Origin: Alphaproteobacteria bacterium
GTDB taxonomy: Bacteria > Pseudomonadota > Alphaproteobacteria > Rs-D84
Direction of reading: 5' to 3'
Assembly (NCBI GenBank): GCA_009783145.1
Contig: WRHR01000002.1
Span: forward strand, 34,834-98,833
Length of the DNA: 64,000 bases
Part shown: piece after piece, positions 2,597-63,574 of the stretch
How the letters are laid out: each line of letters starts with the position of its first letter
Numbering within the stretch: the first letter of the stretch is position 1
Made by a program: the position numbers and the translations under genes
The notes under the pieces: generated by a model
Database searches by the model: none
The model's input: only the letters and a program-made list of their open reading frames with translations
Told to the model about the DNA's origin: nothing

Positions 2597-2640
2597 ATCT
2601 GATTCTCTCCTACTCTCTTACTCTTTTACTCTCATTTAAC
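2525..2640. repeat. Heptamer/octamer-array hairpin element, family C: (agagtaga)x4 / inverted (tactctc)
   Basis: gagtaagagagtagaagagtagaagagtagaaaag ... ctctcctactctcttactcttttactctc; left arm codes LLSFFSTLLLFYSLTL of the 1895-2596 product. Confidence 0.8.
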
Positions 2641-3456
2641 CCAAACCGCCACTTCGTTTTTATCCGCTTTGCGGCAGTAAGTCGCGGCGGATTCAAAGTA
2701 CCCGTTAACGCTGACGCGATCCGCCCAATCCAGCTTTACCGTCGCCAGCCAGCCGCAAGTCTTGAAATCCAGCCCATTCAGCACCAGCGCGAATTCGCGC
2801 ACTCCCGGATGGGCGAATACCGAGAAATCCGCACCCGCCAGCGGGCTTTTTTCTGTTTTCATCACACCAGATTTTACAAGATAGTCGGTGGAGATTCCCC
2901 CAAAATCACGCCGCGCGGCATACAGCAGTTTCGTATTGCTGGCAATCGCTTTCAAGTCTTCGACCGCAACCATGCGAATCTGGCGAGTGCGCACGACATT
3001 ATACATTGATATCGCGCCCGCAGTCATAACACCTGCGATTGCAAGAACGCCCAGCATCTCTATTAGCGAACGACCTGATTGCGACAGGTTGGAGGTTGGA
3101 GGTTGGAGGTTGGAGGTTATTGATTTTGTAGAACTTGAAAGCATCTTTTTTATCTCCTCACAGTCATTGTTGATATTGTTAAACCATTCTTCTGTCAGGT
3201 AATCATTATCTTTTAGCAATTCCAGCCAATACAAAGTTTCGGAACATTCTTTTAATGCTATGTATTGCTTATTTGCAAAATCTTTTCTGCTGCTGGCATA
3301 AGCAGCTTCTGCCAAATTAGCACCGATACTTGTCCCCGATCGTAAAATTTGTTTAGAAAGAATATATTCTTTTTTTTCATCACACAAAAATTTATATAAC
3401 TTTACAACTCGACTGGCAAACTTTTTACTCTTTGTAAAAATCATACTTTCTTTCAT
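2632..3456 (-). CDS. Chimeric ORF: N-terminal four-helix-bundle protein of the 23S-rRNA-IVS protein family (TIGR02436-like) + (TSNLQPP)x3 repeat linker + type IV pilin-like C-terminal half (GRSLIEMLGVLAIAGVMTAGAISMY prepilin motif)
   Basis: Residues 1-110 match the four-helix-bundle pattern (SIGANLAEA...FIALKECSETLYWLELL); AT-rich block 3125-3456; class-III signal motif internal to ORF. Confidence 0.5.
   Translation of the reverse strand: MKESMIFTKSKKFASRVVKLYKFLCDEKKEYILSKQILRSGTSIGANLAEAAYASSRKDFANKQYIALKECSETLYWLELLKDNDYLTEEWFNNINNDCEEIKKMLSSSTKSITSNLQPPTSNLSQSGRSLIEMLGVLAIAGVMTAGAISMYNVVRTRQIRMVAVEDLKAIASNTKLLYAARRDFGGISTDYLVKSGVMKTEKSPLAGADFSVFAHPGVREFALVLNGLDFKTCGWLATVKLDWADRVSVNGYFESAATYCRKADKNEVAVWVK
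3087..3118. repeat. (ggttgga)x4 tandem heptamer repeat, in-frame inside CDS 2632-3456
   Basis: ggttggaggttggaggttggaggttggagg encodes TSNLQPPTSNLQPP. Confidence 0.8.
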
Positions 3457-3492: not shown

Positions 3493-5037
3493 AACCGATA
3501 CAACCTCTGCCCCCGCAAATAGATTCAAAGCGTTTGCAACGGCCGGGTCGGATTCTATTTCCGCTTTTTTTATTTCGCCCGGAGTTTGAAGCGGCTCAGG
3601 CCTTGAAGCCTGCTCTATTTTTTCCAGAGTCCAAGTTTTGCCGGTTTTTTCCAACAAGAACTTATTCAGCTTTATCTGGAAATCGCGATCGTCCCGTCGG
3701 TCAAAGAATTTTATATGCCCATCCGAAAACTCGATAACTTCTATATTGTTGTTCCAATGAGTCATCAGCAGCAATTCTTTTGCATCGGAAAGCGCACAAG
3801 CCAAATCCGCAGGAGAATTTAAAGCCGGAGGCGCGGAATGCGAGGACGGCTCCGGCTGCGCGGCTTTTACGCTTTTCGTTTTGCTTTTTTCGCCTTCGCT
3901 GTGCTGCAACAAAACGGAAACCGGCGGTATGTCCGCGATATGCATCAAGCGCACGAGCAGCATATCGAAGCACTGCTTTTGATTTCCCGCTGCCTGCATT
4001 TCCGGCTGCGCGGCCACCATAACCTGCCATATCCTCGACAAGGTATTTATCCCCGCGGTCTCGACGATTTTTTTGATCTGCTCTTTTTGGTCCGCAGTGT
4101 ACGGCGAGCTTGAAGCGCCGCCGGCGCGCAAGGCCGGATGCATTCTTGTCGCCCAATGAGTCCATTCCATCATGTCAGTCAGCAGCATAGTCAAATCCGC
4201 GCCGTTCGCGTACAGCGCGTCGGCTTTGGCGATCGCCGCCGCCACATCCCCGGATAGCAGAGTCTGCATAAAATCGACAACCACACCGCGGTCCGCGCGT
4301 TTCAGCATTTCCAAGACCGCCGCTTCATCAACCTTGCCCCCCGTCTGCGCGATTGCCTGGTCCAACAGAGATACTCCGTCGCGAGCGCTGCCGTCCGCGG
4401 CGCGGGCAATCAGATCATTCGCGCCTTCGGTCAGCTCTATCTTTTCTTGGTCCGCCATCCAAGCAAAATGCTTCTTTAAAATATCGACCGGTATGCGCAC
4501 CAGATCAAACCGCTGGCAGCGCGATAAAATAGTCACCGGGACTTTGCGGATTTCAGTTGTCGCAAGTATGAAAATAACATGCGATGGCGGTTCTTCCAGA
4601 GTCTTCAACAAAGCATTAAACGCGCTGGTCGACAGCATATGGACTTCGTCGATGATATATACTTTATAGCGGCCGTTCGTAGGGCGATACCCGGCGGCGT
4701 CCAGAATATCGCGCATATTATCCACGCCGGTGTGCGACGCGGCATCGATTTCCAAGACATCGATATGCTGGCCGGCGGCGATCGCGCGGCAGTTTTCGCA
4801 AGTCCCGCAAGGCGTCGCGGTGGCCTTGTCCGCGCTTTGGCAGTTCAAGGCTTTCGCCAGAATGCGCGCGGTGCTGGTTTTCCCGGTGCCGCGTATTCCG
4901 GTGAAGATATATGCGTGAGCAATACGGTCGGTATTGATTGCGGTGGTAAGAGTCTTGACCAAGACTTCCTGGCCGATAAGCGATGCGAAATCCTGCGAAC
5001 GGTATTTCCGCGCAAGAACGGTGTAATTTGTATCCAT
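3487..5037 (-). CDS. dnaX: DNA polymerase III subunit tau/gamma
   Basis: N-terminal clamp-loader AAA+ motifs (GTGKTSTARILAKALNC, Cys4 zinc module CGTCENC, DEVHML). Confidence 0.9.
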   Translation of the reverse strand: MDTNYTVLARKYRSQDFASLIGQEVLVKTLTTAINTDRIAHAYIFTGIRGTGKTSTARILAKALNCQSADKATATPCGTCENCRAIAAGQHIDVLEIDAASHTGVDNMRDILDAAGYRPTNGRYKVYIIDEVHMLSTSAFNALLKTLEEPPSHVIFILATTEIRKVPVTILSRCQRFDLVRIPVDILKKHFAWMADQEKIELTEGANDLIARAADGSARDGVSLLDQAIAQTGGKVDEAAVLEMLKRADRGVVVDFMQTLLSGDVAAAIAKADALYANGADLTMLLTDMMEWTHWATRMHPALRAGGASSSPYTADQKEQIKKIVETAGINTLSRIWQVMVAAQPEMQAAGNQKQCFDMLLVRLMHIADIPPVSVLLQHSEGEKSKTKSVKAAQPEPSSHSAPPALNSPADLACALSDAKELLLMTHWNNNIEVIEFSDGHIKFFDRRDDRDFQIKLNKFLLEKTGKTWTLEKIEQASRPEPLQTPGEIKKAEIESDPAVANALNLFAGAEVVSVK

Positions 5038-5094
5038 GATATTTTATTCCTTGTCGGCTAAGAATAGCAAAAATAAACCGCGTTTCAAGGAATA

Positions 5095-5265
5095 TGTTAG
5101 TCCCCCTTGTTAAAGGGGGAATTTTTGTTAATGAGCACGAAGTGCGAATTTACAAAAATAGGGGGATTATCGTTTTATACGAACATTACAAGATAATCCC
5201 CCTAAATCGCTAAACTCGCCTACGGCTCCTTAAGCGATTTTCCCCCTCTAACGAGGGGGATGACG
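5095..5265. repeat. Cluster of three G5/C5-stem hairpins upstream of dnaX
   Basis: cccccttgttaaaggggg; agggggattatc-N22-gataatccccct; ccccctctaacgaggggg. Confidence 0.6.
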
Positions 5266-5314
5266 AATAACATAACATTTGTAAATACCGACAAAATATG
5301 GTACAATTTACATT

Positions 5315-5566
5315 ATGAAACTGTTCAAACGCATCTTGGGCGTATCTTTGGTTACTGTAGGAGTCCTAGCGGGCAAGTCGGCCCTAGGTGCATCTTGCAA
5401 CTCGGCTATAGGGAACGGGACAGAAATTAATGGCGATTGTCGTTACGAAAGTTGCGTTAATGCAACCGATATTTTATCCAATGGAAAATGTTATTGCAAG
5501 AAAAGCAATTGTGATCCATCTGCCCCCATCAGTTTGTTCAGGCTTCGGGCCGGTTCAAACTGCTAA
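5315..5566 (+). CDS. Small secreted Cys-rich peptide (signal peptide + 8 Cys), AT-rich
   Basis: 83-aa ORF; low-GC block 5300-6330. Confidence 0.3.
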   Translation: MKLFKRILGVSLVTVGVLAGKSALGASCNSAIGNGTEINGDCRYESCVNATDILSNGKCYCKKSNCDPSAPISLFRLRAGSNC

Positions 5567-6329: not shown

Positions 6330-9212
6330 TTACGGACATGACCCACCGGGTGTTTCCATTTCCAACTGAAAACATTTCGGCACACCATTCAGCTTGCCAG
6401 CCCGAGTTATATAGCTACATCTAAGTCCAGCCGCGACGCATCCTTGCGGACCTTCCAGGTATCCCGTGCAGCTTTCATCCATAAATACCCAAACATAGTC
6501 TTCTGAACTATACGTTGAATGGTGCTCGCCATCACCATCTGCATAAGTGAAGCCATATCCTATAAAACCACAGGCAGGATTTATTGCCGCCCCTATTGTA
6601 AAAAGCCCTGAATCGCATCCGAAGCCTTTTGCCGGACATTGCGAATTACGTTCAACACAAGCCGAATTCTGGCTGGAACCTTGTGGTACTCCGCATATAC
6701 TGCCCAGCCATGTCGTTTCGATTGAACAGCAATGGTTATTGTCTGAATTTGCAGAACAAGTGCAATTCTCAATAAGTTGGCCAATTTCGCATGGCGGATA
6801 AACGCAGGAATTGCCGTTCGACTCTTGCCCTGTCGGACAGCAATACTGATTAATACCGGAAGTGCTTACGTCGCCGGGGCAAGCGCAAGACCCATCCATA
6901 GGGAAGTTTGCCGTCGAGCACTTGGGCTTACAGCCGTCGTCCCATGCTTGCCCGGACGGACAGCAATGTCCATGACTGGCGTTGCTGCAAGAGCACTCGT
7001 CCGTAGCGGGTCCCGGGATCGGGCACGGAGGCTTGCCCGTAACGCAATTCATCCCGTTCCAAATCTGTCCGACACCGCAATCCGGCTGACAACGGTTGAG
7101 GTTAATGTTCCAAACTTCGCCCGGCTCGCAGACGCCGTACGGCAATTCGCAGCGTCCCGAGATTACCAGATACCCGGCTTCGCAGACGCAGCGCTCATTC
7201 ACATAGAATCTCTGCAGACCCGTGTTTGGATCCGTTTGATATATTTGCCCAGGCCTTGGAATCGGCGCACCGACCTGCAACGACACCCAAGATGAATAAT
7301 CCGGACACAGCATCGACTGATAGAAGATATCCGATATGCTTTCTATGCATGTGTTCGGCTCGTCTATCGGACAAGCAACTTGATCGTCCGAGAACACCGC
7401 ATAGCCGCAAGTCAGCGCAACGTTCCGACACGCTCCTTTCAGCACCGCGTACACATTGTTGATATTCGCGTTATTAGACCAAGAATTAATCTGCATAACC
7501 TGCTGCGAATAGCACGCCGAAATTTCCGCCATACAACTGGAAGCGTAATCCGATATGATCCTTTCCTGAGCGGCGCGGATGCTGACCATCGCCCGCTGGA
7601 TATAATTCACCAATATATTATTCTTGTTGTTATACTTGCCGCGGTCGTCGTAAGTAAATGCGCGGCACTTGTCCAAGACCGGGCGGCAAAGGCCGCTGTT
7701 CGCATTGTCCCCCATTCCTATCTTCGAAAGCAGATACCGCACGATGCACTTGCCGTTATTGTTTTGAGCGTCGCAGGCGGAATAGCCGGACATGCTCCAC
7801 GCGCTGTTGATAAAGTTCGCATCTATCAGCGAATTATCATAATTAACCATCATCTTTCTTATCATAGAAATATTCTGGCCCAGTATGACTTCGCCATTTT
7901 CGTCTATGAATCTTTTTGTCGGATCCAAGCATTTCGCCATGTCGGCGCCGCAAACCATGTCGTCCTTCATGCATTGCTCCAAGGCCCCGACGCAGCCCTT
8001 GGCGTCGTACGCATTGTGGTCCTGCAGCACGGCCAGACGCGCCTTTTGCAGCATCTGCGTTGCGCTGCGCACGTTGGATTTAAGGGTATCGTTCATCTTT
8101 TCCAATCCCTTTTCGTACGCGATGCAGTCCTTGTCTATCTCCACGTCATAGCGGCCCGTAACCTGCCCGGTGTTCGCGCCCTTGGCCTTGCATGCGTTTA
8201 TCACGGGCGCGCAGCGCTTTTGCGCCATTTTGAACAAGTCCGTCCCGCGAAGGTTCGCAAACGAGGTATTGTTGTTCAGGCTGAACATTTCCGTAAAGTC
8301 CGTATCCAAATCGAAGTCCAAATCCAAATCCAGTCCGAAGTTGTTGTTGCCTTCCGCCACAAAAGATTCTGGGGTGCGTATCAGCTTTTCGATATCCGAC
8401 AGCATTCTGCGCGATTGGGTTGTGTCGCGGGCGTTCTGCAGTTCCAGCTCCGCTTCGGTGGCGGACATAATCGCGCGGATTTCCGGAGCCGTCAGCCCGA
8501 CATAGCGGATGCGCTGCGCCACGTCGTTCAACTGGCTGTTCGCTTCCTTTACGGCGCTTTCCACTCGCGCGTAAGACGACAAGCGCCCCGAACAGGCGCA
8601 TCGCTTTTGATTCGCGTCGATTACCGCGCAGAACTGATCCATGCAATCCGTGTACTGCACCATGCACGAATCGGTCGCAGCGCTGGTTTCTTCCCAGTTA
8701 AGCGCAGGCGCAGCAGGCGCAGAGGTCGCCGCGCGCGCCGTCAGATTACGGTTTTCGGCGCTTATATTCGAACCGGTTTGAAGGTCCGTGCCGACAATTT
8801 TCGCCCGTCCTCCGACTTCCGCCGTAGTCGGGCGCAAGGTAACCCCCGCGCGCCGCATAGGCGCGGACGCGTTCAGGCTTGCGGCATCGGTGCGCGCGGC
8901 GCGCCCTACTTGACGCGCGGCTTCGGTTATCGGGCTGGCGCGTCCGGATGCGGCCGGGGCCGCGTTCGCAACTTGACGAGATACGACTGCGCCGCGAGGA
9001 GACGGTGTCGCAGCTTGGACGCCAACTGCCGCCGGCTGATTCGCCGTTACGCGCGATACAACAGCGCCTTGGGTTTCAGTCTGATTTTGCGCGGACGAAG
9101 CGGCTGTAACGCCAACCTGCTGGCCTGGAATCGCGCGCGACGGGGCAACGTCAGCGGCCAGCGCCATGCCAGCGCAAAGAGCAAAGAACAAAGAGCAAAG
9201 AGCAAGTCTTTT
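6330..9212 (-). CDS. Large secreted Cys-rich protein B (signal peptide, A/T/G/R-rich disordered region, conserved Cys core, C-terminal Cys-dense repeats)
   Basis: about 960 aa from MKRLALCSLFFALCAGMALA; paralogous to 9215-11356 (YTDCMDQFCAV...RCACSGRL vs YYTCMDEICTA...RCACAGRV). Confidence 0.6.
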   Translation of the reverse strand, partial: KRLALCSLFFALCAGMALAADVAPSRAIPGQQVGVTAASSAQNQTETQGAVVSRVTANQPAAVGVQAATPSPRGAVVSRQVANAAPAASGRASPITEAARQVGRAARTDAASLNASAPMRRAGVTLRPTTAEVGGRAKIVGTDLQTGSNISAENRNLTARAATSAPAAPALNWEETSAATDSCMVQYTDCMDQFCAVIDANQKRCACSGRLSSYARVESAVKEANSQLNDVAQRIRYVGLTAPEIRAIMSATEAELELQNARDTTQSRRMLSDIEKLIRTPESFVAEGNNNFGLDLDLDFDLDTDFTEMFSLNNNTSFANLRGTDLFKMAQKRCAPVINACKAKGANTGQVTGRYDVEIDKDCIAYEKGLEKMNDTLKSNVRSATQMLQKARLAVLQDHNAYDAKGCVGALEQCMKDDMVCGADMAKCLDPTKRFIDENGEVILGQNISMIRKMMVNYDNSLIDANFINSAWSMSGYSACDAQNNNGKCIVRYLLSKIGMGDNANSGLCRPVLDKCRAFTYDDRGKYNNKNNILVNYIQRAMVSIRAAQERIISDYASSCMAEISACYSQQVMQINSWSNNANINNVYAVLKGACRNVALTCGYAVFSDDQVACPIDEPNTCIESISDIFYQSMLCPDYSSWVSLQVGAPIPRPGQIYQTDPNTGLQRFYVNERCVCEAGYLVISGRCELPYGVCEPGEVWNINLNRCQPDCGVGQIWNGMNCVTGKPPCPIPGPATDECSCSNASHGHCCPSGQAWDDGCKPKCSTANFPMDGSCACPGDVSTSGINQYCCPTGQESNGNSCVYPPCEIGQLIENCTCSANSDNNHCCSIETTWLGSICGVPQGSSQNSACVERNSQCPAKGFGCDSGLFTIGAAINPACGFIGYGFTYADGDGEHHSTYSSEDYVWVFMDESCTGYLEGPQGCVAAGLRCSYITRAGKLNGVPKCFQLEMETPGGSCP

Positions 9213-9214
9213 CA

Positions 9215-11356
9215 TTACCATTCGTGCGGCACGCATTGCCCGCCTTGGGTTTTGTACCCGTTGAAGCATCTGCATCCGATTTTCACGCATCCGTTCGTAC
9301 CGCCCGAGGTGGAAGTAATGCCATCGGAAGAAATGCCTTCGCAGACCGCGCTATAATCCGAATACGGAGGACACATCACGACGCCGGGGCCCCAGCCCGT
9401 GCCGAAGTCGCGGATAGAGCCTTCGCCATGCACGCCCGGCGTTTCCCGCAGGCAGCTTTCGCGCAACGATGCCGAGCTTTGTCCGCCAACCGCCGTTATG
9501 ACGTTCAGGATTTCCGTCAGCCGGACCACATTGCGGCAGTTATTGATGCTCCAATCCTGCGAGTTATTGCAACTGCCGGTGCTGTCCGGAACATCGATAA
9601 TTCTGCCCGCGCCTTGGCCGCATACCATGGTGTCATAGCAGCTTGGGACCTCCGAGCTCTGCGAGCAATAATTCCTTACGCGCGCCACGGTCCAATTCGG
9701 GTTAGACCGGTTCTGCTGGTCAAAGCAGTCATATATTTCATTGACGCAGTTCTTATAGTTCTCCTTGGCAGTCGCCAATTCGTTCGCCGTGTTCGTCGTT
9801 TCTTCCTGCGCGAACTCCAGACGCTTTTGCTGCAAGTATTGCGTCGCGGCGATCTTCTGATACGCCATGTTCGTCGCTTGCTTTTTCAGCTCTTCCCCAT
9901 ACAGGTCGCAATCCGCGTTCGCGTCCAGCGCATACTTTTGCAGGATGGAACGGCGCGCGTCCGCAACCGGGCGGCGCAAGTTCGCGTACGGGTCGCCGCT
10001 GGACGTCGTATAGCCATAGCACGCCGCGCTGGTGTTGCCGGTATAAGAATTTCCGGGGTTAACGAAGTTCAAATCGGACCCGTCGTTGCTGACGGTGATA
10101 GTGCTGTTAAGATTATACGGCCCGGTGGTGCCGCCGTACGATCCGCACGCTTCATAGATTCCGTTAAAGCAGGAATCCAGAACTCGGTTGCAGACGTTGT
10201 TGTGCCCGTACTGGAACAGCTGGTATCCCCAAAGCCTCGCCAGAAAGTCCGCCGACGTCTCGGTATTGAACAGGTTTATATCCGCCATCTGGCCCACTAT
10301 ATCGCTGACGTTCATGAACGAGTTGAACAAGTTGCCATCGTTGCTGCCCGTGATAACATTGATTTGGTTTATGGTGCTGGCATAGGTCTGCAGGTTCGCC
10401 AAGATATCGGAATCCGCGCCGTTCAGAACGCTCATAAACTCATTGAAGCTGTTCAGCCCCAGCGCGCCGTTGGTGCAGTACGAAGGCGGAGTCGTCGCAT
10501 TGCATGTCTCGCTGTATCCGGCGGTCTGTCCCATCATATGGTTGTTGCACCAGTCGGTCATGTTCTGCCCTGTGGTTTTCGCATCGCGCCAGGATACGCA
10601 GTTCAGGGTCTTTTCCGCATCGGTAAGTTGGAACGCCTCGTTCATGCTCTTGCCCCTGGTCATAATCAGCATAGACAGCTGGCCCGAAACTTTCAGCAAG
10701 TCTTCTTTCGCCTGCTGCAGTTGAGCCTCGACATTGGAAAAGGTCTTTACGCGTCCGGCGCAGGCGCAGCGGCGCTGGCCCGGATTGCGCGCGGTGCAGA
10801 TTTCGTCCATGCAGGTGTAATAAGATTCCAAACAGTTGGCGTAAGCGTCCGCGGAAATCAAGCCCGTGGTCGGATCTATTATGTTGGAATAAGTTCCCGT
10901 ATACAGCCTGTTCTGCAACAAGGTGTTCGAAGCGCTGACTCCGGCGCTGGCGCGGATCGGCACATCTCTCAGCGATATGCGCGCCTGGCTCGCGCCCGCC
11001 GGCATTGTTGCGGTACGCGCGGTGACACTGCGCGCCGGACTGCCGGGACGCGTCACTACATTTCTGGGGGTCGCGGCTGAAGCGGCATTCCCGCGCTGCG
11101 CCACGCCGCGCGAGGTCTGGCCGGTTGCTGCCGTGCCTCGGCTGGTCCCGGTTGTCGCGCCGGCTTTCGCCGCCGCCGATGTCGTTTGGGCACGTCCGGT
11201 GCGATTGTTCGCGGCGCCCGAGCGCCCGGACTGCGCGGCCGCAGTGGTCTGCGCAGGCACTGTCTGGTCGTACCCGGCAATCGGATCACCCAACGCTGGC
11301 AACGCAAAAGCGGCGCAAAGCGCAAACGCAAAGTATACAAAAAACCGGCTTTTCAT
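9215..11356 (-). CDS. Large secreted Cys-rich protein A (paralog of B)
   Basis: 713 aa, signal peptide MKSRFFVYFAFALCAAFALPALG; 4-bp overlap with downstream paralog suggests an operon. Confidence 0.6.
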   Translation of the reverse strand: MKSRFFVYFAFALCAAFALPALGDPIAGYDQTVPAQTTAAAQSGRSGAANNRTGRAQTTSAAAKAGATTGTSRGTAATGQTSRGVAQRGNAASAATPRNVVTRPGSPARSVTARTATMPAGASQARISLRDVPIRASAGVSASNTLLQNRLYTGTYSNIIDPTTGLISADAYANCLESYYTCMDEICTARNPGQRRCACAGRVKTFSNVEAQLQQAKEDLLKVSGQLSMLIMTRGKSMNEAFQLTDAEKTLNCVSWRDAKTTGQNMTDWCNNHMMGQTAGYSETCNATTPPSYCTNGALGLNSFNEFMSVLNGADSDILANLQTYASTINQINVITGSNDGNLFNSFMNVSDIVGQMADINLFNTETSADFLARLWGYQLFQYGHNNVCNRVLDSCFNGIYEACGSYGGTTGPYNLNSTITVSNDGSDLNFVNPGNSYTGNTSAACYGYTTSSGDPYANLRRPVADARRSILQKYALDANADCDLYGEELKKQATNMAYQKIAATQYLQQKRLEFAQEETTNTANELATAKENYKNCVNEIYDCFDQQNRSNPNWTVARVRNYCSQSSEVPSCYDTMVCGQGAGRIIDVPDSTGSCNNSQDWSINNCRNVVRLTEILNVITAVGGQSSASLRESCLRETPGVHGEGSIRDFGTGWGPGVVMCPPYSDYSAVCEGISSDGITSTSGGTNGCVKIGCRCFNGYKTQGGQCVPHEW

Positions 11357-11421
11357 AAAAAACCCCTTCCCTATATTCGTTTTATTATATCATAAAAACT
11401 AACTGAGTGAAAGCGTTATCA

Positions 11422-11508
11422 ATGACTAATGACCAATGACTAATGTTTAATGACCAATATAAGCGCCCATTAGTCATTCGTCATTTATCATTGGTCATTA
11501 GTCATTAA
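11422..11508. repeat. Heptamer-array hairpin element, family B (second copy)
   Basis: caatgactaatgaccaatgactaatg ... cattagtcattcgtcatttatcattggtcattagtcatt. Confidence 0.8.
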
Positions 11509-12024: not shown

Positions 12025-12237
12025 TTATCTGCCAAAGCCGAGTTCTTTTAACTCTTTCTTATATTTTTGAAAGTTCGGGCATTTTGACTGGTCGCAGCCG
12101 GCGCTCCAGAACCCGCAAGTTTCGCAGGGATTCCGGGGGCGCTGTAAATGGGCTGAGCCCGGCGGGGGGCCAAATTCCGACATTCTCGTTTCTTTTGTTA
12201 GAAGCATCAAAGACTGTAATAAAAAATTTCGCGACAT
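12025..12237 (-). CDS. Possible small Cys-rich zinc-binding protein (CETCGFWSAGCDQSKCPNF)
   Basis: 70-aa ORF, CxxC...C...C spacing; weak. Confidence 0.2.
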   Translation of the reverse strand: MSRNFLLQSLMLLTKETRMSEFGPPPGSAHLQRPRNPCETCGFWSAGCDQSKCPNFQKYKKELKELGFGR

Positions 12238-12440: not shown

Positions 12441-12716
12441 ATGAGCTACTTAACAATAATCCGCAATATAAGAAACACATTATTCAAAGTATTTTTGATA
12501 AACATTTTGTTTGTTATCGTATTTTGGGTATTCGCGATGCTGGATCTGATGCAGTACTTTATATGGGCGCTGCCCGGCTGGACATTGGAAATGACCAATG
12601 ATTATATCATATGGCTGATCGGGCTTATAGAAGTTGTAAACCTTGTTCTGTTCCTGGCGCCGACCTTGGCGCTGAGCTGGGAAATCGGCCGCGTAAAGCC
12701 GAAGAAAAAGAAATAA
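12441..12716 (+). CDS. Small membrane protein (2-3 TM)
   Basis: 91 aa hydrophobic; aggagggggct SD 6 nt upstream of ATG. Confidence 0.35.
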   Translation: MSYLTIIRNIRNTLFKVFLINILFVIVFWVFAMLDLMQYFIWALPGWTLEMTNDYIIWLIGLIEVVNLVLFLAPTLALSWEIGRVKPKKKK

Positions 12717-12747
12717 AAATTCCGCCGGATGGCGGGATTTTTATTCT

Positions 12748-13158
12748 TTATTTTTTTCTTTCGCCATATTGTTCCATCAACTGTTTGTCTATAGTCCTCC
12801 TTGCCGCGCTTCGCAATGCAAGCCATAATTTATACTTGTCGCAGTCGCATTCTCTCGGATCGCAATTCCTGCAATTTTTATGAGAACCGCAGCCGATTTT
12901 ATCCTCAATATCCACATTGGAAATACGCTGAACGGCGCGGCACACAGTATCGGCAATTTTACTACCCTTCTTTCCGCCCGCTTCTTGGCCAAGATAAGCT
13001 TCATCAAGACGCTTTGCGTCATCGAAATAACCGGCAGGCATTGTTTCTGCCCATTCTGCATTTGTTAACTTATCCCCGTCGTTATTAAACATAGCATTTC
13101 TCTTTTTTCCCCGCCAAAAACTCTCTTCCGTTAAACCTGGGCTGATTGTACAATACAT
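12748..13158 (-). CDS. Hypothetical protein with C-terminal Cys cluster (CGSHKNCRNCDPRECDCDKY)
   Basis: 136-aa ORF. Confidence 0.3.
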   Translation of the reverse strand: MYCTISPGLTEESFWRGKKRNAMFNNDGDKLTNAEWAETMPAGYFDDAKRLDEAYLGQEAGGKKGSKIADTVCRAVQRISNVDIEDKIGCGSHKNCRNCDPRECDCDKYKLWLALRSAARRTIDKQLMEQYGERKK

Positions 13159-13180
13159 AAGAAGCTTGTCAAGTTTTATA

Positions 13181-13207
13181 AAAAAATCCCGCTATGAAAG
13201 CGGGATA
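13181..13207 (-). terminator. Native rrn operon intrinsic terminator (aucccgcuuucauagcgggau + U7 on minus strand)
   Basis: Classic stem plus U-tract; lies just beyond a degenerate copy (13225-13258) of the 23S-5S spacer hairpin. Confidence 0.6.
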
Positions 13208-13258
13208 ATATTGTCGGTTTTTATGCTTGTCCGCCGAAGCCTTGGCGAAAGCGGATTA

Positions 13259-13284
13259 ACAGAAATTGGTTCTGGCGACGACCT
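13259..13284. repeat. 26-bp direct repeat = duplicated 3' end of the 5S rRNA gene (right junction of the inserted cassette)
   Basis: acagaaattggttctggcgacgacct identical to 15868-15893. Confidence 0.9.
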
Positions 13285-13286
13285 GG

Positions 13287-13889
13287 TTATGCACTCATAA
13301 TACTATCCACCAATTTATGGATTCCAGCAAGCTTAGACGCCTCATACTCCTTGCCATCCGCATTGCTAAGCCCCCAGCTCCTGGCCGTATCTTGTGCCAA
13401 TTCATACCTTTTCATCATGTCCTCGAAGTTAAACTTTGCTCCATCACTATGGTCATACCCAGGCATTATTTCTTCTAGCTTCTTTTGGCACTGATGTCTT
13501 GTCGTTGGGATATCAGAAGGCGGAACATAATGTGATAACGCCCATGCTTCTATACACGGCGTATTCAATGCTATTTGTACTTTTGGCCTATTGGCAACCG
13601 AATTGCTTTCCTTTGCCTTTTGATATGCCAGTCTTACTCTTTCCGCTTTATCATCGTGATCAAACACGCACCAATATTCTACGCTTTTCTCTATTCGCTT
13701 ATCTTTGACAAAAGATACCATTCCCTCAACAATCTTCAATGGATCCGTATGCTTGTGGGGTTGAATTTGAAGCATACATCTTGGATTTAATTTACTAATC
13801 GCATCCAAATACCTTGGTTCGGAATTCACTCCCTCACAAATCACATATACTGTTTTGGTAATCAAAGGTCTACTTGGCGGGCATCTCAT
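13287..13889 (-). CDS. RloB-like protein (AbiLii-like component)
   Basis: N-terminal VYVICEGVNSEPRYL matches the RloB (vICEGxtEpnYf) signature; 20-bp overlap with the upstream ATPase gene. Confidence 0.6.
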   Translation of the reverse strand: MRCPPSRPLITKTVYVICEGVNSEPRYLDAISKLNPRCMLQIQPHKHTDPLKIVEGMVSFVKDKRIEKSVEYWCVFDHDDKAERVRLAYQKAKESNSVANRPKVQIALNTPCIEAWALSHYVPPSDIPTTRHQCQKKLEEIMPGYDHSDGAKFNFEDMMKRYELAQDTARSWGLSNADGKEYEASKLAGIHKLVDSIMSA

Positions 13890-15192
13890 CCGTATTCTCC
13901 GCAGATTTTACACCATCCAAAAAGAGATGCGCCCCTAAAAAGGGAATTGCACCATATACGCCATTCAGATACCCTCTTTCCACATCTTTGTCTTTGCGGG
14001 GGGCAAAATCTGCCAACGAATATAATTTCGAGGAATGGTCAAAATCTTTTTTTACAAACCAAATTTCATCATCACGCCATATATCCTGAATATCCATTAG
14101 CAGCGTGTTATGCAAAGATACCAATATTTGTGAACCATTTTTATTATCTGCCAATAATTGCTGCAATAAGCGCTTTACAATGAACGGATGCAGAGAGCTA
14201 TCAAACTCATCAATTATCAATAAAGCGCCTTTTTGATAATTTTTAAAGTTATATAACGCCAAAGCAAGATGTATTAGCCTATTCGTCCCGGTAGATAGTT
14301 CTGACAACTCAAAATACTCGTTCTCGACTTTGATTTTCAACTTCTCTCCTTTCGCCTTTCCAGATGCAACATCAAATGTAAAAACATAGTAGTCTTCACC
14401 ATCCATATATGATAGAGCATCGCCGAATTTTACAGGTGTCGTATATTTGGACGGCTTACTCTTTAACAATTCATTTGTTAAATCATCTGAAATTTTTACA
14501 AATTCCGCGCACTGAATACCAACATCGGATTCTTGCAATAACCTATTTAAAAATTCGGGAAAACTACTCTGTGTGTTATAAACATTATAGAATGACGACA
14601 TCTTGACCTTGGTCTTATCGTTGAAAAGCAATATGGCCCCAAAAAATTCATATAAATTTTCTATATGATCTCTATACGACCAATCAATGCTATTGAGGCC
14701 GTCAGTATCTAATTTGCGAATATAAGACATTCGATCCGCAACGGTTTTATTTTCTCTCGACCAATTTCCACCACATTCGACCTTGCCTTTTGAGCGACGA
14801 AATATCAATTCAGTTTGCGAGTCGTCTTTTATCAGTTCAAATTTCTCACTAACAAATTCCGCAGGTCTGATCTTCATTTCATACAAATACTTTTTGTTGC
14901 TCCATATAAAGCTGATTTTAAAAACCGATTCGTTATTTTCGGAAAATCTGAATTGGCTTGCCTTTACATTCAACGAAGAAATATCATCCATTTCTATCAA
15001 CAAACTTAACCAGCTCAATGAATTCATAAAATTTGATTTTCCGCTCGCATTTGCACCATAAATTACTGCTCCTGATAAGTATTCATCTGAGACAATATGG
15101 TCCAAGTGTTGTCTGCTGCCGGTTTTTTCAAAACTAATCTCTTGTTCGGAATCAAACGAGCCAAAATTTGACACGGAATATTTCACAAGCAT
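13870..15192 (-). CDS. AAA_21-type ATPase (AbiLi-like / RloA-like component)
   Basis: Walker A GANASGKSNFMNSL, Walker B LLIIDEFDSSLHP typical of AAA_21. Confidence 0.7.
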   Translation of the reverse strand: MLVKYSVSNFGSFDSEQEISFEKTGSRQHLDHIVSDEYLSGAVIYGANASGKSNFMNSLSWLSLLIEMDDISSLNVKASQFRFSENNESVFKISFIWSNKKYLYEMKIRPAEFVSEKFELIKDDSQTELIFRRSKGKVECGGNWSRENKTVADRMSYIRKLDTDGLNSIDWSYRDHIENLYEFFGAILLFNDKTKVKMSSFYNVYNTQSSFPEFLNRLLQESDVGIQCAEFVKISDDLTNELLKSKPSKYTTPVKFGDALSYMDGEDYYVFTFDVASGKAKGEKLKIKVENEYFELSELSTGTNRLIHLALALYNFKNYQKGALLIIDEFDSSLHPFIVKRLLQQLLADNKNGSQILVSLHNTLLMDIQDIWRDDEIWFVKKDFDHSSKLYSLADFAPRKDKDVERGYLNGVYGAIPFLGAHLFLDGVKSAENTDEMPAK

Positions 15193-15487
15193 GATTAACC
15201 CCTTTTATAAAAACTTCGTAAGTTTATCTTAATCGTTACACCAATGTCCGAAAAAATCAAGCAGAAAATACGATAAAGTCGCAAAAAAACAAACACTCTT
15301 GCTATTCTCGATTTTTTCGCATTCTTTATTTGACTTTTCCGTAATAGTGTTGTATAATAAAAAAGAATCACCCGAAATGGATGATTCTTCCAAAACCGGA
15401 ATCAACAAATGGCAACTCAATTTCGGCTTAAAGCACCCTGATTATGCCATAAGATGATTCTTAAAACAACAGGTATTTTGACCACAT

Positions 15488-15826
15488 GTGCAAAATACCG
15501 CATACCAAAAACAAAGGATTTATCTAATGGTATATGTAATTAATGCAACCGGCAATTATCCAAAAGATTGCCCGCCTCAATACGATTCTTGGATCGATTA
15601 CTGGATAAAAAAACGCGGCCTGATACCCGAGTGGTGTAGACACTGCAAAACGAACACGAAAGAATTAGATGGCGGCCATGTACGAATTGTAGAACAGGGC
15701 CCGGACGGAAAATGGTATTATAAAGGCGAAACCTTGTATATCGTCCCGATTTGTCGCGGATGCAATAATCCTAACAACCAAGAAATTTTCTCAGTATCAG
15801 AAACAGACTTGGTTCCTGTACCATAA
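15488..15826 (+). CDS. Small HNH-like (bba-Me) zinc-finger nuclease candidate
   Basis: CRHC ... LDGGHV ... N ... IVPICRGCN spacing resembles CxxC-H-N-CxxC HNH cores. Confidence 0.4.
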   Translation: MQNTAYQKQRIYLMVYVINATGNYPKDCPPQYDSWIDYWIKKRGLIPEWCRHCKTNTKELDGGHVRIVEQGPDGKWYYKGETLYIVPICRGCNNPNNQEIFSVSETDLVPVP

Positions 15827-15829
15827 AAA

Positions 15830-15853
15830 ACGCCCCAAAAGGGGCGTTTAATT
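15830..15853. terminator. Bidirectional intrinsic terminator (aaacgcccc-aaaa-ggggcgttt), now terminating 5S/rrn on minus
   Basis: Perfect hairpin with A-run one side and T-run the other. Confidence 0.65.
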
Positions 15854-15876
15854 CGGTTTTTATGTTTTACAGAAAT

Positions 15877-15995
15877 TGGTTCTGGCGACGACCTACTCTT
15901 CCGTGGCTTAAGCCAAAGTACCATTGGCGATGCAGGGTTTCCCTGTCTGGTTCGGGATGGAACAGAGGGTGGCTCCCGCTCAATAATCACCAGAA
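15877..15995 (-). rRNA. rrf: 5S ribosomal RNA
   Basis: ...CCAUCCCGAACCAGACAGGGAAACCCUGCAUCGCCAAUGGUACU...GGAAGAGUAGGUCGUCGCCAG; flanked by 16-nt inverted processing arms 15870-15885 / 15989-16004. Confidence 0.85.
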
Positions 15996-16155
15996 CCAAT
16001 TTCTGCGCTTGTCCGCCGTAGCTTTAGCGAAGGCGGAAACATCGTAATTCAAAATATCAAAGAATCCATTCTTTCAACATACTCTTCAAGCATTCTGTTT
16101 GATTTCACGGCGCGCGAGGCGTCATGAAATCAAACAAAGATAAAAAGTCGATCAT

Positions 16156-19027
<2,872 letters not shown>

Positions 19028-19062
19028 TTTATCCAATGCTTGAAGAGTAGGTCGTAACGCGA

Positions 19063-19889: not shown

Positions 19890-21585
<1,696 letters not shown>

Positions 21586-21939
21586 TTAGAAAACTTGTTT
21601 GTTTGTCCGTGCACTAAACTAAACTGACATTGAATGTTAGTTCGTTTTACTATTTCGCAAGACAAGTATTTTAACGAGGCCACAAAATTTTGTAACCTAC
21701 TACCTGTCTAGGATATGCACTATGACAATTGTCAAAGTTTGGATTTTCCCAAATTCAACTGTCTGCACATCCCTTCTTTTTATGATTTGTATTTTGCAAC
21801 GCAAAACACCCATCATAAATCTTGATGAGCTGCTTTATTCACAATGTTGCGATTTTTCCTGGGACAACGAATCGTGTTGTTTCCATAAAACCGCAGAATT
21901 TCAGGGGTTGAAGCTTTTGTTCCAACTTGAAAGCCCGCA

Positions 21940-25613: not shown

Positions 25614-25738
25614 ATTAGCGATTAGCAATTATCAATTAGCGATTAAAAATGCAACAATATGAAATGTCCAATATACTGGACAATGTTATTACCAGTTCCC
25701 CAATTGCTAATCGCTAATTGCTAATCGCTAATTCCTTT
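25614..25738. repeat. Heptamer-array hairpin element, family A (second copy) with central TGTCCAATATACTGGACA
   Basis: ttagcgattagcaattatcaattagcgatt ... ttgctaatcgctaattgctaatcgctaatt; shared gcaacaata flank. Confidence 0.85.
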
Positions 25739-27984
25739 ACTGTTTTCGTCTTCGGGTCGTATACCTTTGGGGTGCCGCGATATCCCATCGTAGAATGATG
25801 GCTGGGGATTAGAAATTCCGGCAGAGGCGTGCTTTCGCCCATACTCCTGAACGCCTGCAGCCGCGGGTCGGAATACGCCGGAGTATAATCCGCTTCGATC
25901 GGCCTGTGGTACCAGCCTTGGAATATTACCAGCTCCTTTTTCGCGTCCAGCTTCAGAATATCCATAGTGCTGTAAAGCGGCTTTCTTTCCGTCGTCGTAG
26001 TGTCTTTTCCGTCCGCGCCCTTGGTCTTTTTCTCCTCCACTTTTTCGCCCATCATATCCGAAAATCTTTTGGCGGTATCGGGGTCATTCTGGCGGAAAAC
26101 GATTTTCGCCGCAGTCGTGGAAATTATGGTTGCCGCCGCGTCCGCGCCGTACTTTTCCTGAATCTGGTGAATATCCTGGCCGATGATAAGATAAGACACT
26201 TTCTGTCCTCGGCCGATATCGGGCCCTTGGATAATCGCCTGCATCTTTTGCATTTTGGGCATTTCGTCCAAGACGAACAAGGCGGGGAACGGCCCGACTT
26301 TTTGACCCTTATGCTCGTCGCCGGGCGCGTTCGCAATCAGAAACTTAGACATAAGCTCGATAAATATTGCCGTTATCGGGTTCAAGGCGTCGGCATCGAC
26401 CTGATTGATGGACAGGTATACCGTAACCGGCTTTATTTTTCCATCGCGCGGGTCGATCATACCGCGCAGATCCGCGAAATGAAAATCACTGTGGCTGGTG
26501 CGATTTCGCACGGCGGCGTTTCGGAAAATCCCCAGCCCCGCCAGAACCGTGGACAGGATGGAGCCGCGCTCCTTGTCCGGGGTATTCGCAATCTGCGTAA
26601 GCTCCAAAACCGCGCGATGGCTGTATCCGTACTGCAGCGCTTCGTTCACCGCGTTCAGGAACAAGTCCTTCATGGGATCGGCCATCATCACCATCTGGTC
26701 GCCTTGCTTGCGGCGGTTTTCTATTTCCTCGGCGATCAGCACCTGATTTTTGTTCAGCCAGTCCAGAATCATGGACAAAGACGCCTCTTTCCCGATCCAA
26801 TCGTCCGGAATCTTCGCCCAAGTCCCGATATGGACATAGTTCATGGCATTCAACTGCCCGTTGGCCAAGGCATGCAGCGCGGCATCCGCATTCGGGTCAT
26901 TCATAAGGGTATAATACTCGCCCAGCAATGCGGCGTCTTCGGAATCGAATTGTCCAGATTGCAGGCGCGCGTAAAAATACTCGTCCGCCTTGACCTTGTC
27001 TATCTTGGAAACCATAAAGTTGATAAGACCCGAAAGCGCCGCGCGGCCGGAAATCGTCCAATGGGGGTCGGCGGTAGAGCTTGTCTTGTCCGCAATAAGC
27101 GTGGAGCATATGGAGTCTATGTAAAGGTCGCGCTCTTCGGCCAGAAACGGCACATGCGAAGGCGATAAAGGGTTCCAGGACGGATAATAAATGCCCGCCG
27201 CCGGATCGTCCTGGCCCGCCCAGTTCATGATAAACACCGGGCCTACTTTCTCCGCGCGATACGCGGACGACTGCTGCTTTAATTCCGGCTTCGGGTCGTT
27301 GATAATCATCGAAACGCCGGTGCAATCAAAGATAGTGGGCAAAACGACGCCTTGGGTTTTACCGGTCCCTGGAGGAGCCAAACATAGGGCGGAAAAAGTC
27401 TCCTTCATCATCAGCGGCTTTTTCTTCCAATAGCCCAGAACCATCATAAAACCGTCAAGCAGGCCCATTTTTTTGACATCTTCGTCATTGGCCTTGCGCG
27501 AGGACTCTTCTTTCAGGGTGTCTTTGCCATGTGGGTTGAACTCTTTAAGCAGGGTATCGTCCGCCAGGATGAAAAACACGGCCAGCGGAAGCAGCGGGGC
27601 AAGCGTCGCAATATCGGTCTGGGTGACGGCTCTCATAAGCCAATCCGGGACTTCGGCCAGCACGGACAAGCCGCCGCTGCGCAGCAGGTTTCCGAAATAT
27701 ACGCTGATCCACTTGGCGGCGGCCGGCGACCAGCCATAGCGCCATATATGCTCGATCGGAAACGCCAGAATAAACGCCAGCGCGCAGGACAGCCAGATAA
27801 TAAGCTTGTACCGCATATTCCAGAACAAGCGCGCCAAGGGCGTCCTTTCGTGGTCCTTGTACACGGACGAGTCGAATATCTTCAGCCCCTTGCCTTTGCC
27901 CGAAAACGATAAAAAGTTGAACTTTTCTGCCATTAGGTTTATTATACCAAAAAAATAGGTAATTGATAATGCAAAACTTGCCAA
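25714..27984 (-). CDS. virD4: Type IV secretion coupling protein VirD4/TraG family
   Basis: Two N-terminal TM segments, Walker A LAPPGTGKTQGVVLPT, Walker B FVLDEMP, 756 aa. Confidence 0.8.
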   Translation of the reverse strand: MASFALSITYFFGIINLMAEKFNFLSFSGKGKGLKIFDSSVYKDHERTPLARLFWNMRYKLIIWLSCALAFILAFPIEHIWRYGWSPAAAKWISVYFGNLLRSGGLSVLAEVPDWLMRAVTQTDIATLAPLLPLAVFFILADDTLLKEFNPHGKDTLKEESSRKANDEDVKKMGLLDGFMMVLGYWKKKPLMMKETFSALCLAPPGTGKTQGVVLPTIFDCTGVSMIINDPKPELKQQSSAYRAEKVGPVFIMNWAGQDDPAAGIYYPSWNPLSPSHVPFLAEERDLYIDSICSTLIADKTSSTADPHWTISGRAALSGLINFMVSKIDKVKADEYFYARLQSGQFDSEDAALLGEYYTLMNDPNADAALHALANGQLNAMNYVHIGTWAKIPDDWIGKEASLSMILDWLNKNQVLIAEEIENRRKQGDQMVMMADPMKDLFLNAVNEALQYGYSHRAVLELTQIANTPDKERGSILSTVLAGLGIFRNAAVRNRTSHSDFHFADLRGMIDPRDGKIKPVTVYLSINQVDADALNPITAIFIELMSKFLIANAPGDEHKGQKVGPFPALFVLDEMPKMQKMQAIIQGPDIGRGQKVSYLIIGQDIHQIQEKYGADAAATIISTTAAKIVFRQNDPDTAKRFSDMMGEKVEEKKTKGADGKDTTTTERKPLYSTMDILKLDAKKELVIFQGWYHRPIEADYTPAYSDPRLQAFRSMGESTPLPEFLIPSHHSTMGYRGTPKVYDPKTKTVKELAISN

Positions 27985-55754: not shown

Positions 55755-56486
55755 TTATATCCCCAAAATCGTCCAAAGCAATCTCCGCGCGTCGATATAC
55801 GATTTATACAGCAATTCGCCGACCCTCTTCCACCGCGCCACCAGATATTTTTTCTTTTCGGCATAATTGATGCTGCTGGCCACGCCCTTGCGTTCCCAAG
55901 CGATGTTAGGGAATACCGACCGGCCGCGGACGCGGTACTTCCAATATTTTATGTACTCGTGGTCATGCGGGACGAACATAGGCAGCATTTTGGCGACATA
56001 TCTTTTCGCCGCATCGCGCTTTATCAGATAAGCCCCGGATTTGTTCTGATGAAACGCGTTCCTTACCAGATGATATTTTCCGCCAAGCAACTTGCGCATA
56101 CGGATTTTTCCGCCTCCATGTGTGCCGTATAGCTTCACGATATCCCAATCGTCCTTTGATATTATGTCGTCCAAGACCTGCTTGAAATCCACAGCGAACT
56201 CCATATCGTCTTCCAGTATCAGGCCGATGTCGGCGCCCGTTTCGACGAATTTCTCCAATGCCTCGTAATGCGAGATATAGCACCCGATTTCATTGTTCAT
56301 CACGATTCTGCCGTGGACGAAAGTATGAAGGCCGCGATTGACCTCCCTGCTTGTAAATGTCCGTATCTTGCCGTCGGTGCCCGAAACGCGGACAAAATCC
56401 AAGCCGACAGCTTTCAGGTTTTTTTCGGTTTGTTCCATGCGCTCGGGTGCGCGGTCCAAATTTATTACGAGCGTTTTCATTTTCAT
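55755..56486 (-). CDS. Glycosyltransferase family 25 (LPS core beta-glycosyltransferase-like)
   Basis: MKMKTLVINLDRAPERMEQTEKNL... typical GT25 N-terminus. Confidence 0.65.
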   Translation of the reverse strand: MKMKTLVINLDRAPERMEQTEKNLKAVGLDFVRVSGTDGKIRTFTSREVNRGLHTFVHGRIVMNNEIGCYISHYEALEKFVETGADIGLILEDDMEFAVDFKQVLDDIISKDDWDIVKLYGTHGGGKIRMRKLLGGKYHLVRNAFHQNKSGAYLIKRDAAKRYVAKMLPMFVPHDHEYIKYWKYRVRGRSVFPNIAWERKGVASSINYAEKKKYLVARWKRVGELLYKSYIDARRLLWTILGI

Positions 56487-57793: not shown

Positions 57794-57797
57794 TCTA

Positions 57798-59261: not shown

Positions 59262-59340
59262 GATTTACGATTTACGATTTACGATTTACGATTTAGGGAG
59301 TCAAATCGTAATTCGCAAATCGTAAATTATTTTTTCTCCT
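59262..59340. repeat. Family F heptamer-array hairpin filling the gap between virB6 paralogs C and B
   Basis: atgatttacgatttacgatttacgatttagggagtcaaatcgtaattcgcaaatcgtaaatt. Confidence 0.85.
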
Positions 59341-60586: not shown

Positions 60587-60665
60587 TTACGATTTACGAT
60601 TTACGATTTACGATTTACGATTTAAGGAGTCAAATCGCAAATCGTAATTCGTAAATATTAAATTA
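60587..60665. repeat. Family F heptamer-array hairpin filling the gap between paralogs B and A
   Basis: (tttacga)x5-tttaaggagtcaa-(atcgcaa)(atcgtaa)... Confidence 0.85.
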
Positions 60666-61946: not shown

Positions 61947-61973
61947 TCAAATTATGATATAATTGATAAAAAC

Positions 61974-63395: not shown

Positions 63396-63574
63396 GATTC
63401 GCCAGAAAGTCAAGTTTTTTATTTTTTCGGGCGGGATTTTTTTTGGCTTCCGAATCTGATATAATTTTCTTTGATGAATTGTGAACCGCTGAATTCTCCG
63501 ACTTTATTCTGGCCCAAAAGCCGATGCCGCGATTCGGACGTCTATCAAGCGGCAAGGCGCGTTATTTCGGATAA

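Follow-up and report, generated by a model that had tools for sequence, protein, structure and literature searches.

The 64-kb stretch of DNA analysed here, indicated throughout as the window, carries one ribosomal RNA (rrn) operon, on the minus strand, in the order 16S, tRNA-Ala, tRNA-Ile, 23S, 5S. Behind the 5S gene lie a gene for a small cysteine-rich protein and two genes of the AbiL abortive-infection type; behind these, the last 15 nt of the 5S gene and its trailer are found a second time, as a direct repeat of the 5S tail. The segment in which the genes and the repeat are located varies in length and content among related lineages, and the repeat is preferably read, with moderate confidence, as an rrn tail displaced by recombination anchored on the rrn operon. 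The features of the region are reported in Table 1, in their order along the window.

Table 1. Position and description of the features found in and around the rrn-downstream segment (aa, amino acids; Cys-rich, cysteine-rich; ORF, open reading frame)
Feature	Position	Strand	Description
Small conserved CxxC ORF	12025-12237	-	in L045, L046 and L049, 51-71% aa identity to the ORF directly upstream of the Cys-rich gene; the conserved backbone resumes here
Second accessory block	12441-13172		promoter 13145-13172 (-); 114-aa gene 12748-13092 (-); two-way terminator 12712-12745; 91-aa gene 12441-12716 (+)
termL, intrinsic terminator	13186-13206	-	terminator scan; -13.2 kcal/mol, z -5.3; would now end the AbiL operon
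Left 12-mer, TCGGTTTTTATG	13214-13225		exact match
H2 hairpin	13226-13255		inserted in the left copy of the rrn trailer; breaks an otherwise continuous match to the right tail
Left 26-mer copy	13259-13284		orphan 5S tail stub; exact match
AbiLii, RloB-like	13287-13889	-	Pfam RloB, 87.3 bits (cut-off 31.5); PADLOC AbiLii, E=3.7e-15
AbiLi, AAA_15/AAA_21 ABC-type ATPase	13870-15192	-	PADLOC AbiLi, E=2.1e-68; Pfam AAA_21, E=1e-23
Regulatory block between diverging genes	15300-15372		TTGACT-17-TATAAT promoter on the + strand (15330-15358), 11/12 in the promoter scan; CGAAAAAATCGAG inverted repeat
Terminator-like hairpin upstream of AbiLi	15361-15391	-	terminator scan; the corresponding position of L010 has a hairpin, different in sequence, followed by a T-run
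99-aa cysteine-rich protein	15527-15826	+	CxxC...GGHV...YIVPICxxCNN; family of 149 cluster representatives
termR, two-way intrinsic terminator	15828-15849		scan match on both strands; -17.2 kcal/mol, z -4.6
Right 12-mer, TCGGTTTTTATG	15853-15864		on the rrn strand, CATAAAAACCGA, a motif kept after 5S in relatives
Right 26-mer copy	15869-15894		last 15 nt of 5S and 11 nt of trailer; exact match
5S rRNA, intact	15880-15994	-	Rfam RF00001, 72.5 bits, model positions 1-120; 21-bp leader/trailer helix on folding
H1 hairpin	16008-16037		23S-5S spacer; clean 30-nt insertion relative to L007
23S rRNA	16139-19031	-	Rfam
16S rRNA	19890-21586	-	Rfam

The repeated 5S tail and the genes it encloses

The repeat was first recognized as the 26-mer ACAGAAATTGGTTCTGGCGACGACCT, which the window contains exactly twice. 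Read on the rrn strand, it corresponds to the 3' strand of the helix formed, upon folding, by leader and trailer around 5S in the precursor; the DNA bracketed by the two copies measures 2,584 bp. The exact recurrence of the 26 bp to the left of the block, reported in the original prediction, is borne out by exact matching; the right copy, placed there at 15868-15893, also exists, one base away from that position. Overlooked at the time was a second exact match, the 12-mer listed in Table 1, common to both copies. The duplicated unit is about 42 bp long; its left copy is split by a 30-nt hairpin (H2), and each of the two units ends at an intrinsic terminator, termL on the left and termR on the right. 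The hairpin aside, the copies are identical at 38 of 38 positions (26 + 12).

No third copy of the 26-mer is found in the window, even allowing up to 3 mismatches, nor did 100 shuffles produce one. A 15-mer at 12652-12666, with 2 mismatches, was considered as a further copy and discarded: chance alone would give about 0.1 matches of this kind, the position falls within a coding region, and no trailer comes after it. A dispersed repeat found at many loci, the finding that would have spoken against the original prediction, is ruled out, as the window holds two copies only and no true dispersed copies occur in the contig collections: there, searches of genome, metagenome and viral contigs with the 20-mer core retrieved only the 5S gene of L007 and two chance matches within coding DNA (L003, L008). 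The repetition of the 5S tail is genuine and does not result from chance. Since rRNA operons often break or misjoin metagenome assemblies, a false join at a k-mer in common might be suspected. Across the repeat copies, however, contigs of several independent metagenome samples match the window at 100% identity, and an ENA contig of 22.9 kb (L004) covers both copies, the 5S gene and part of the 23S gene: an assembly artefact is extremely unlikely.

The hairpin which splits the left unit is found four times in the window, with a consensus close to CTTGTCCGCCGAAGCCTTGGCGAAAGCGGA: in addition to H2 and H1, both on the + strand, copies are located at 62576-62605 (+) and 63780-63809 (-). It is a small dispersed palindromic element, not specific for the rrn spacer. 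The original prediction saw a copy of the spacer hairpin to the left of the repeat, which is indeed there; its description as a specific 23S-5S spacer element does not hold, given the four copies. In this lineage, the hairpin may represent a miniature insertion element of palindromic type. Two of its copies fall within long ORFs, where 30 nt would preserve the reading frame.

Two of the genes between the repeats, an RloB-like gene and an AAA_21 ATPase gene, had already been named in the original prediction; both are confirmed by Pfam and PADLOC, and their matches identify them clearly as an AbiL abortive-infection pair. AbiLi scores 85.3 bits against AAA_21 (cut-off 27) and 43 bits against AAA_15 (cut-off 32.1). 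The genes are on the same strand and overlap by 20 nt, and the stop codon of AbiLii, as read from the sequence, is 2 nt away from the left repeat copy. The G+C content of the block is 34-40%, versus 52-60% in the backbone genes. Judging from the families, AbiLi, an ABC ATPase, would act as the sensor and AbiLii, RloB/TOPRIM-like, as the effector of a predicted abortive-infection defence. AbiL belongs, with PARIS and Gabija, to the OLD-like class of defences, which pair an ABC ATPase with a TOPRIM protein; the overlapping two-gene operon and the matches to PADLOC AbiLi/AbiLii and Pfam AAA_21, AAA_15 and RloB are those of the AbiL system. The pair described here differs in being only 45-47% identical to its nearest known relatives and in its chromosomal location directly behind rrn, and its defensive role is a prediction. 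It is classified as a new member of a known family.

Upstream of AbiLi, the window has a block of about 70 nt in common with L010 (~2660-2740), a contig of a related genome; identity is ~80% in the block, against 47% between the AbiLi proteins. The block probably represents an operator and promoter common to the two; its near-consensus promoter points away from AbiLi. The terminator-like hairpin next to it, which has a counterpart in L010, would shield AbiL from rrn read-through. Because both the conserved block and a terminator hairpin are found in the window and in L010, the two are regarded as alleles of one module. The AbiL pair, together with this regulatory block, constitutes a candidate defence module from an uncultured gut alphaproteobacterial lineage.

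The third gene of the block encodes the 99-aa protein and converges on the rrn operon; termR is predicted to end both transcripts. For the protein, no Pfam (no HNH at E<=0.1), PADLOC or PHROG match was obtained. The 149 cluster representatives of its family, gathered by an exhaustive HMMER search, are mostly about 100 aa long and share a conserved CxxC...GGHV...YIVPLCxxCNN pattern; C37, C76, C79, H51 and N80 are conserved, while the central Asn position is occupied by Tyr or Phe. Members are also present in 30 viral contigs. The AlphaFold2 (AF2) model, of high predicted local distance difference test score (pLDDT 96.5), has no structural neighbour in PDB or BFVD, and tested negative for a beta-beta-alpha-metal fold: the protein, as modelled, may represent an undescribed small zinc-binding fold. 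Its description as HNH-like and as a candidate homing nuclease was a guess from the Cys/His motif, followed by neither a Pfam HNH nor a fold match. The protein was also considered as a conserved third component of AbiL and rejected, since it is absent from L009, L010 and L044, its phage homologues have no ATPase partner, and its closest bacterial homologue (P0122) is next to a ResIII helicase gene, not to AbiL or rRNA. The phage homologues adjoin variable ORFs resembling homing endonucleases.

Were the 99-aa protein a free-standing nuclease cutting the empty 5S tail, the block might have been copied in by repair. Some traces are consistent with such homing: the family pattern (CxxC...GH...CxxCN), a weak match of the family profile to the HNH protein of PDB entry 4h9d (E=0.059), one Pfam HNH and one HNH_5 match among 40 members scanned (E ~0.005-0.008), and the presence of members in phage genomes. 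At the equivalent position, L010 has a small ORF (2134-2538, -; 134 aa) unrelated to the 99-aa protein, diverging from AbiLi and featuring a GIY...YIG-like motif; as it lacks any Pfam match, it was not retained as a GIY-YIG nuclease. The absence of a Pfam HNH match, the location of P0122 away from AbiL and rRNA and the duplication itself, whose 42 bp are not what homing produces, make homing very improbable.

The segment downstream of rrn in related genomes

Relatives were retrieved through homologues of a 713-aa Cys-rich protein encoded in the window (L045, L046-48, L049-51, L134, L135-136; 56-66% identical in that protein). They are relatives at the family level: for L045 and L049, identity to the window is ~92% in 16S and 93-94% in 23S. 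A common gene order is conserved, consisting of TraG/VirD4, a pseudouridine synthase (RluX), two genes, rrn, its terminator, a variable segment, the small CxxC ORF, two Cys-rich genes, DnaX, OmpA and OmpH; it is complete in L045 and L049, and present from 5S onward in L046, L134 and L135. The variable segment is ~115 nt long in L046, measured from the rrn terminator to the conserved small ORF; it is ~0.5 kb long in L045, ~1.5 kb in L049 and L135, where it holds an Abhydrolase_2 gene, and ~3.6 kb in the window; it reaches 6.4 kb, with nine other genes, in L134, and more than 6 kb in L009. At least six different contents are found at this position among related lineages.

In the window, the variable DNA is not bounded by the repeat: it continues on its left, through the second accessory block, as far as the small conserved ORF. 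The 114-aa and 91-aa genes of that block have no counterpart in the syntenic relatives; the 114-aa gene was considered as a paralogue of the small CxxC ORF, to which it shows no similarity. Neither AbiL nor a second 5S tail is present in the syntenic relatives L045, L046, L049, L134 and L135. The comparison with relatives lacking the insert, proposed with the original prediction, is available for five syntenic lineages at the family level, down to the ~115 nt of L046; these relatives, however, lack the genes to the left of the repeat as well as the AbiL block, and their trailers differ. At the species level, look-ups of the exact AbiLi and 114-aa proteins gave no empty site, but only occupied contigs, identical to the window.

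Homologues of AbiLi were searched in a database of 5.8 billion clusters, where the three closest are 45-47% identical. Two of them come from related genomes (L009, L010-12) and are near the same Cys-rich gene, while the third, about as close, belongs to an AT-rich organism that is unrelated. The L009 contig opens with the last 31 nt of 5S, in identical form, followed by a terminator and four genes; AbiLi and AbiLii are located 1.75 kb downstream, and three more genes precede the Cys-rich homologue. L010-12 features AbiL, a PagL-like region and the Cys-rich homologue. The 5S-tail repeat was not found in L009 or in L010-12. The AbiL genes have a G+C content of 34-40% in all three genomes, window included. 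Between L009 and L010, the flanking Cys-rich protein is 93% identical over the 59 residues present on both contigs, while AbiLi is only 48% identical; as the homologue of the unrelated organism is about as close, this suggests that AbiL alleles have been exchanged at this position, and not simply inherited.

Across these contigs, the segment between rrn and the Cys-rich genes is a variable slot for accessory and defence genes in a family of gut Alphaproteobacteria. It resembles defence-island hotspots, in that the same core flanks (rrn, Cys-rich) enclose differing cargo: AbiL alleles in the window, L009 and L010, an unrelated hydrolase in L049 and L135. The non-syntenic relative L007 carries a Zeta-toxin gene after its rrn terminator. 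Two traits set it apart from such hotspots: one of the flanks is an rrn operon, and a piece of this flank is duplicated.

The layout behind 5S is itself conserved. In L007, L009, L045, L046, L049, L134 and L135, the gene is followed by a trailer, a CATAAAAACCGA-like motif, an AT-rich spacer and a terminator; the same full layout is present in both copies of the window. In L007, where 5S is 99% identical and the trailer is the same, the order is 5S, trailer, CAAAAACCGA, a hairpin-like element, the terminator and the Zeta-toxin gene (4964-5524, -); this downstream flank is not syntenic with the window. Trailers vary among genera, as exemplified by ACCAATTTCTG, ACGAAATTCAT and ATAAATCCAGT. Since they differ in this way, and the copies of the window are identical at all 38 positions, both tails would derive from one species-level lineage and not from a distant donor.

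The terminators are less informative. With the rrn terminator of L045 and L046, which among the syntenic relatives are the closest, termR agrees at 29 of 32 positions; for termL, spacer and stem match L134 at 28 of 37 positions and L007 at 28 of 38. The type of stem was considered as a marker of orthology and found to be a weak one: terminators of the GCGGGATTTTT type are also present elsewhere in the window (12712-12745 and ~63428-63445). Because simple C-rich terminators recur in this way, neither match is decisive, and termR appears at least as likely as termL to be the ancestral terminator. According to the original prediction, the block was inserted between 5S and its native terminator, the left one; both terminators do exist, but the left one is no more than a candidate for the native one, given the similarity of termR to the terminators of L045 and L046.

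Origin of the displaced tail

Among the window ORFs of at least 150 aa, none has an integrase or transposase domain; the original prediction, too, had seen no integrase. The three ORFs of the block (AbiLi, AbiLii and the 99-aa ORF) contain no recombinase domain. The DNA of the block has no match in plasmid and phage collections, and no terminal inverted repeats are present at its ends. A transposon with a target-site duplication was discarded, as neither a transposase, in the ORFs of that size, nor terminal inverted repeats are available, and the duplication is ~42 bp instead of 2-15 bp. An integron-like cassette was discarded as well, no integron integrase being present among the window ORFs. 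Nothing demonstrates a mobile element targeting 5S.

The original prediction described a foreign 2.6-kb cassette, inserted in a site-specific manner with duplication of its target. The repeat and the distinct composition of the block stand; a target duplication by a site-specific event does not follow from a repeat of ~42 bp, with no integrase and with variable DNA extending beyond it. In this scheme, a small element would carry an attachment site mimicking the 5S tail, and be integrated by a recombinase acting in trans, or later deleted: 5S would be rebuilt, while the native tail and terminator would be displaced, as in islands at tRNA and tmRNA genes. As in these islands, a direct repeat with the 3' end of a stable RNA flanks low-G+C accessory genes, and the RNA gene is intact; here, however, the target is 5S, an integrase was looked for and not found, the block measures just 2.6 kb, and the repeat runs 27 nt beyond the gene, up to the terminator, without bounding the variable DNA.

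Several traits of the block favour integration: besides the exact repeat of an RNA-gene 3' end around DNA of distinct composition, the end of the element abuts the AbiLii stop codon, at 2 nt, the block has a terminator and a regulatory region of its own, and spacer and stem of termL resemble the native rrn terminator of the syntenic L134. The similarity of termR to the rrn terminators of the closest syntenic relatives points the other way, as termR may be native and not borne by the element. No integrase is encoded in the block or by the window ORFs of at least 150 aa, and the element was not found in plasmids, phages or viral contigs, the 20-mer scans of genomes and metagenomes giving chance matches and the 5S of one relative. 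Relatives carrying the same genes with different flanks, and without a direct repeat, would argue against the insertion: L009 and L010-12, whose AbiL homologues have neither the repeat nor an integrase on their contigs, partly correspond to this case, and weaken the site-specific reading. Site-specific integration is, on balance, unlikely. More doubtful still is the specific proposal that the 5S tail (last 15 nt and trailer) is the true attachment site of a small non-autonomous defence cassette, moved by a recombinase in trans or by the 99-aa zinc protein; if it were, 5S would be a new class of integration target, beside tRNA and tmRNA genes.

A rearrangement within the chromosome might also leave two tails. 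An ancestral second rrn tail, from a tandem rrn or a segmental duplication, would have been brought next to AbiLii by a deletion, whose joint would link the gene's end with the 15 terminal nt of a second 5S. The left copy does look like a full native rrn tail, with trailer and terminator, truncated within 5S, and the 38/38 identity of the copies, H2 apart, is that expected of paralogous tails of one genome. Yet neither an additional rrn nor another 5S tail is present at the locus in any of the syntenic relatives, and an additional ancestral state, never observed, is required, along with a precise deletion: this origin is rather improbable.

The reading preferred here, given about an even chance of being correct, is that the repeat is an rrn tail displaced by recombination between two versions of the slot, anchored on rrn and without a dedicated integrase. 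In this genome, two versions of the region downstream of rrn are stacked in the slot, and both have an rrn tail and a terminator. The first, attached to the intact 5S, comprises trailer, termR, the 99-aa gene, the regulatory block, AbiLi and AbiLii; the second, starting 15 nt inside the 5S tail, comprises the stub, the trailer with H2, termL and the 114-aa and 91-aa genes. The two haplotypes that recombined would have been conspecific or close relatives, and the rrn operon, long and conserved, would have been the homologous anchor. Both the route and the direction of the recombination are inferred. A circularised fragment might have entered by a single crossover within the 26-42 bp of common tail; the junction of such a circle would read AbiLii stop, CC, the 26-mer, AAAACATAAAAACCGA, termR. 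Alternatively, homology-facilitated illegitimate recombination would have produced the non-homologous joint, which is located 2 nt past the AbiLii stop and, in the other 5S, 15 nt short of the end. By either route, one rrn tail would be pushed downstream, where it would now terminate the AbiL operon; H2 would have been inserted later, or was already present in one of the haplotypes. Since a ComEC gene is present (40847-42766), DNA uptake is plausible.

Orphan 3' ends, displaced by anchored illegitimate recombination, have a precedent at type VI secretion system (T6SS) effector-immunity loci and Rhs loci (PMC5361080). At the Rhs, contact-dependent inhibition (CDI) and T6SS loci, a conserved upstream anchor is present, the incoming module brings its own copy of the anchor 3' end, the older 3' stub and the downstream genes are pushed distally, and relatives carry different modules (PMC5361080). 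The locus described here has rrn upstream, the stub at 13259-13284 with trailer and terminator downstream of AbiL, and different modules at the same position in relatives. It differs from the published cases (PMC5361080) in that the anchor is an rRNA operon and not a protein-coding gene, the stub is made of 15 nt of 5S, trailer and terminator, and a single displacement step is visible.

Some considerations weigh against anchored recombination. The searches retrieved no relative at the species level, no donor haplotype and no empty site, and integration by an integrase, followed by loss of the integrase, would lead to the same end product. A joint just 2 nt past the AbiLii stop is what an element with a defined end would typically show, more than illegitimate joining at random. 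A homology of 26-42 bp is near the lower limit for a RecA-dependent crossover. The low G+C content of AbiL in three genomes fits repeated import from outside as well as exchange within the lineage, and the genome is covered here for 64 kb only.

The duplication of the 5S tail at an rrn-anchored slot is a new variation on known island and displacement architectures, seen in one genome and with no demonstrated mobility. If anchored recombination is the correct explanation, an rRNA operon can provide a defence-gene hotspot with its conserved homologous anchor. No other DNA common to genera is as long and as conserved as rRNA operons, and such an anchor would let AbiL-type alleles pass between fairly distant relatives. 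Each step would be marked by a displaced gene tail, as is the case for Rhs and T6SS loci. To the picture of defence islands, this would add something useful, though incremental.

Additional features of the window

The rRNA genes themselves contain additional sequence. The 16S gene is 1,697 nt long, against 1,533 of the model: at ~21331-21515 (-), corresponding to 16S positions 72-256, about 185 nt are present where, by BLAST, L045 and L049 have ~12 nt. In 23S, another block (~150 nt) is found at ~18354-18505 (-), positions 527-678 of the gene. By sequence, the two blocks look like intervening sequences; a gene for a protein of the 23S_rRNA_IVP family is located at 2632-3456.

The flanks of the slot include two large, adjoining genes for secreted Cys-rich proteins, of 986 aa (6330-9290, -) and 713 aa (9215-11356, -), in which no Pfam domain is found. 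For the 713-aa protein, more than 1,200 homologues were obtained at E<=1e-10; those with a name originate from gut metagenome-assembled genomes (MAGs) labelled 'Alphaproteobacteria' and 'Rickettsiales'. The pair, always syntenic with DnaX, is a lineage-specific family. A repeat of about 100 nt, made of gactaatgaccaatga-like units and 76-83% identical, is found upstream of the 713-aa gene (11421-11506) and again at 1038-1145. On the other side, upstream of rrn, lies a gene for a VirD4/TraG-type coupling protein of type IV secretion systems (25714-27984, -); its position is the same in L045 and L049, and it is therefore regarded as resident, not as a part of a mobile element.

Finally, at 56483-63368, beside the mraY/ftsW/murG cluster and where mur/fts genes are expected, five consecutive long ORFs have no Pfam match at E<=1e-4: they may be listed on the wrong strand, or encode very divergent proteins.

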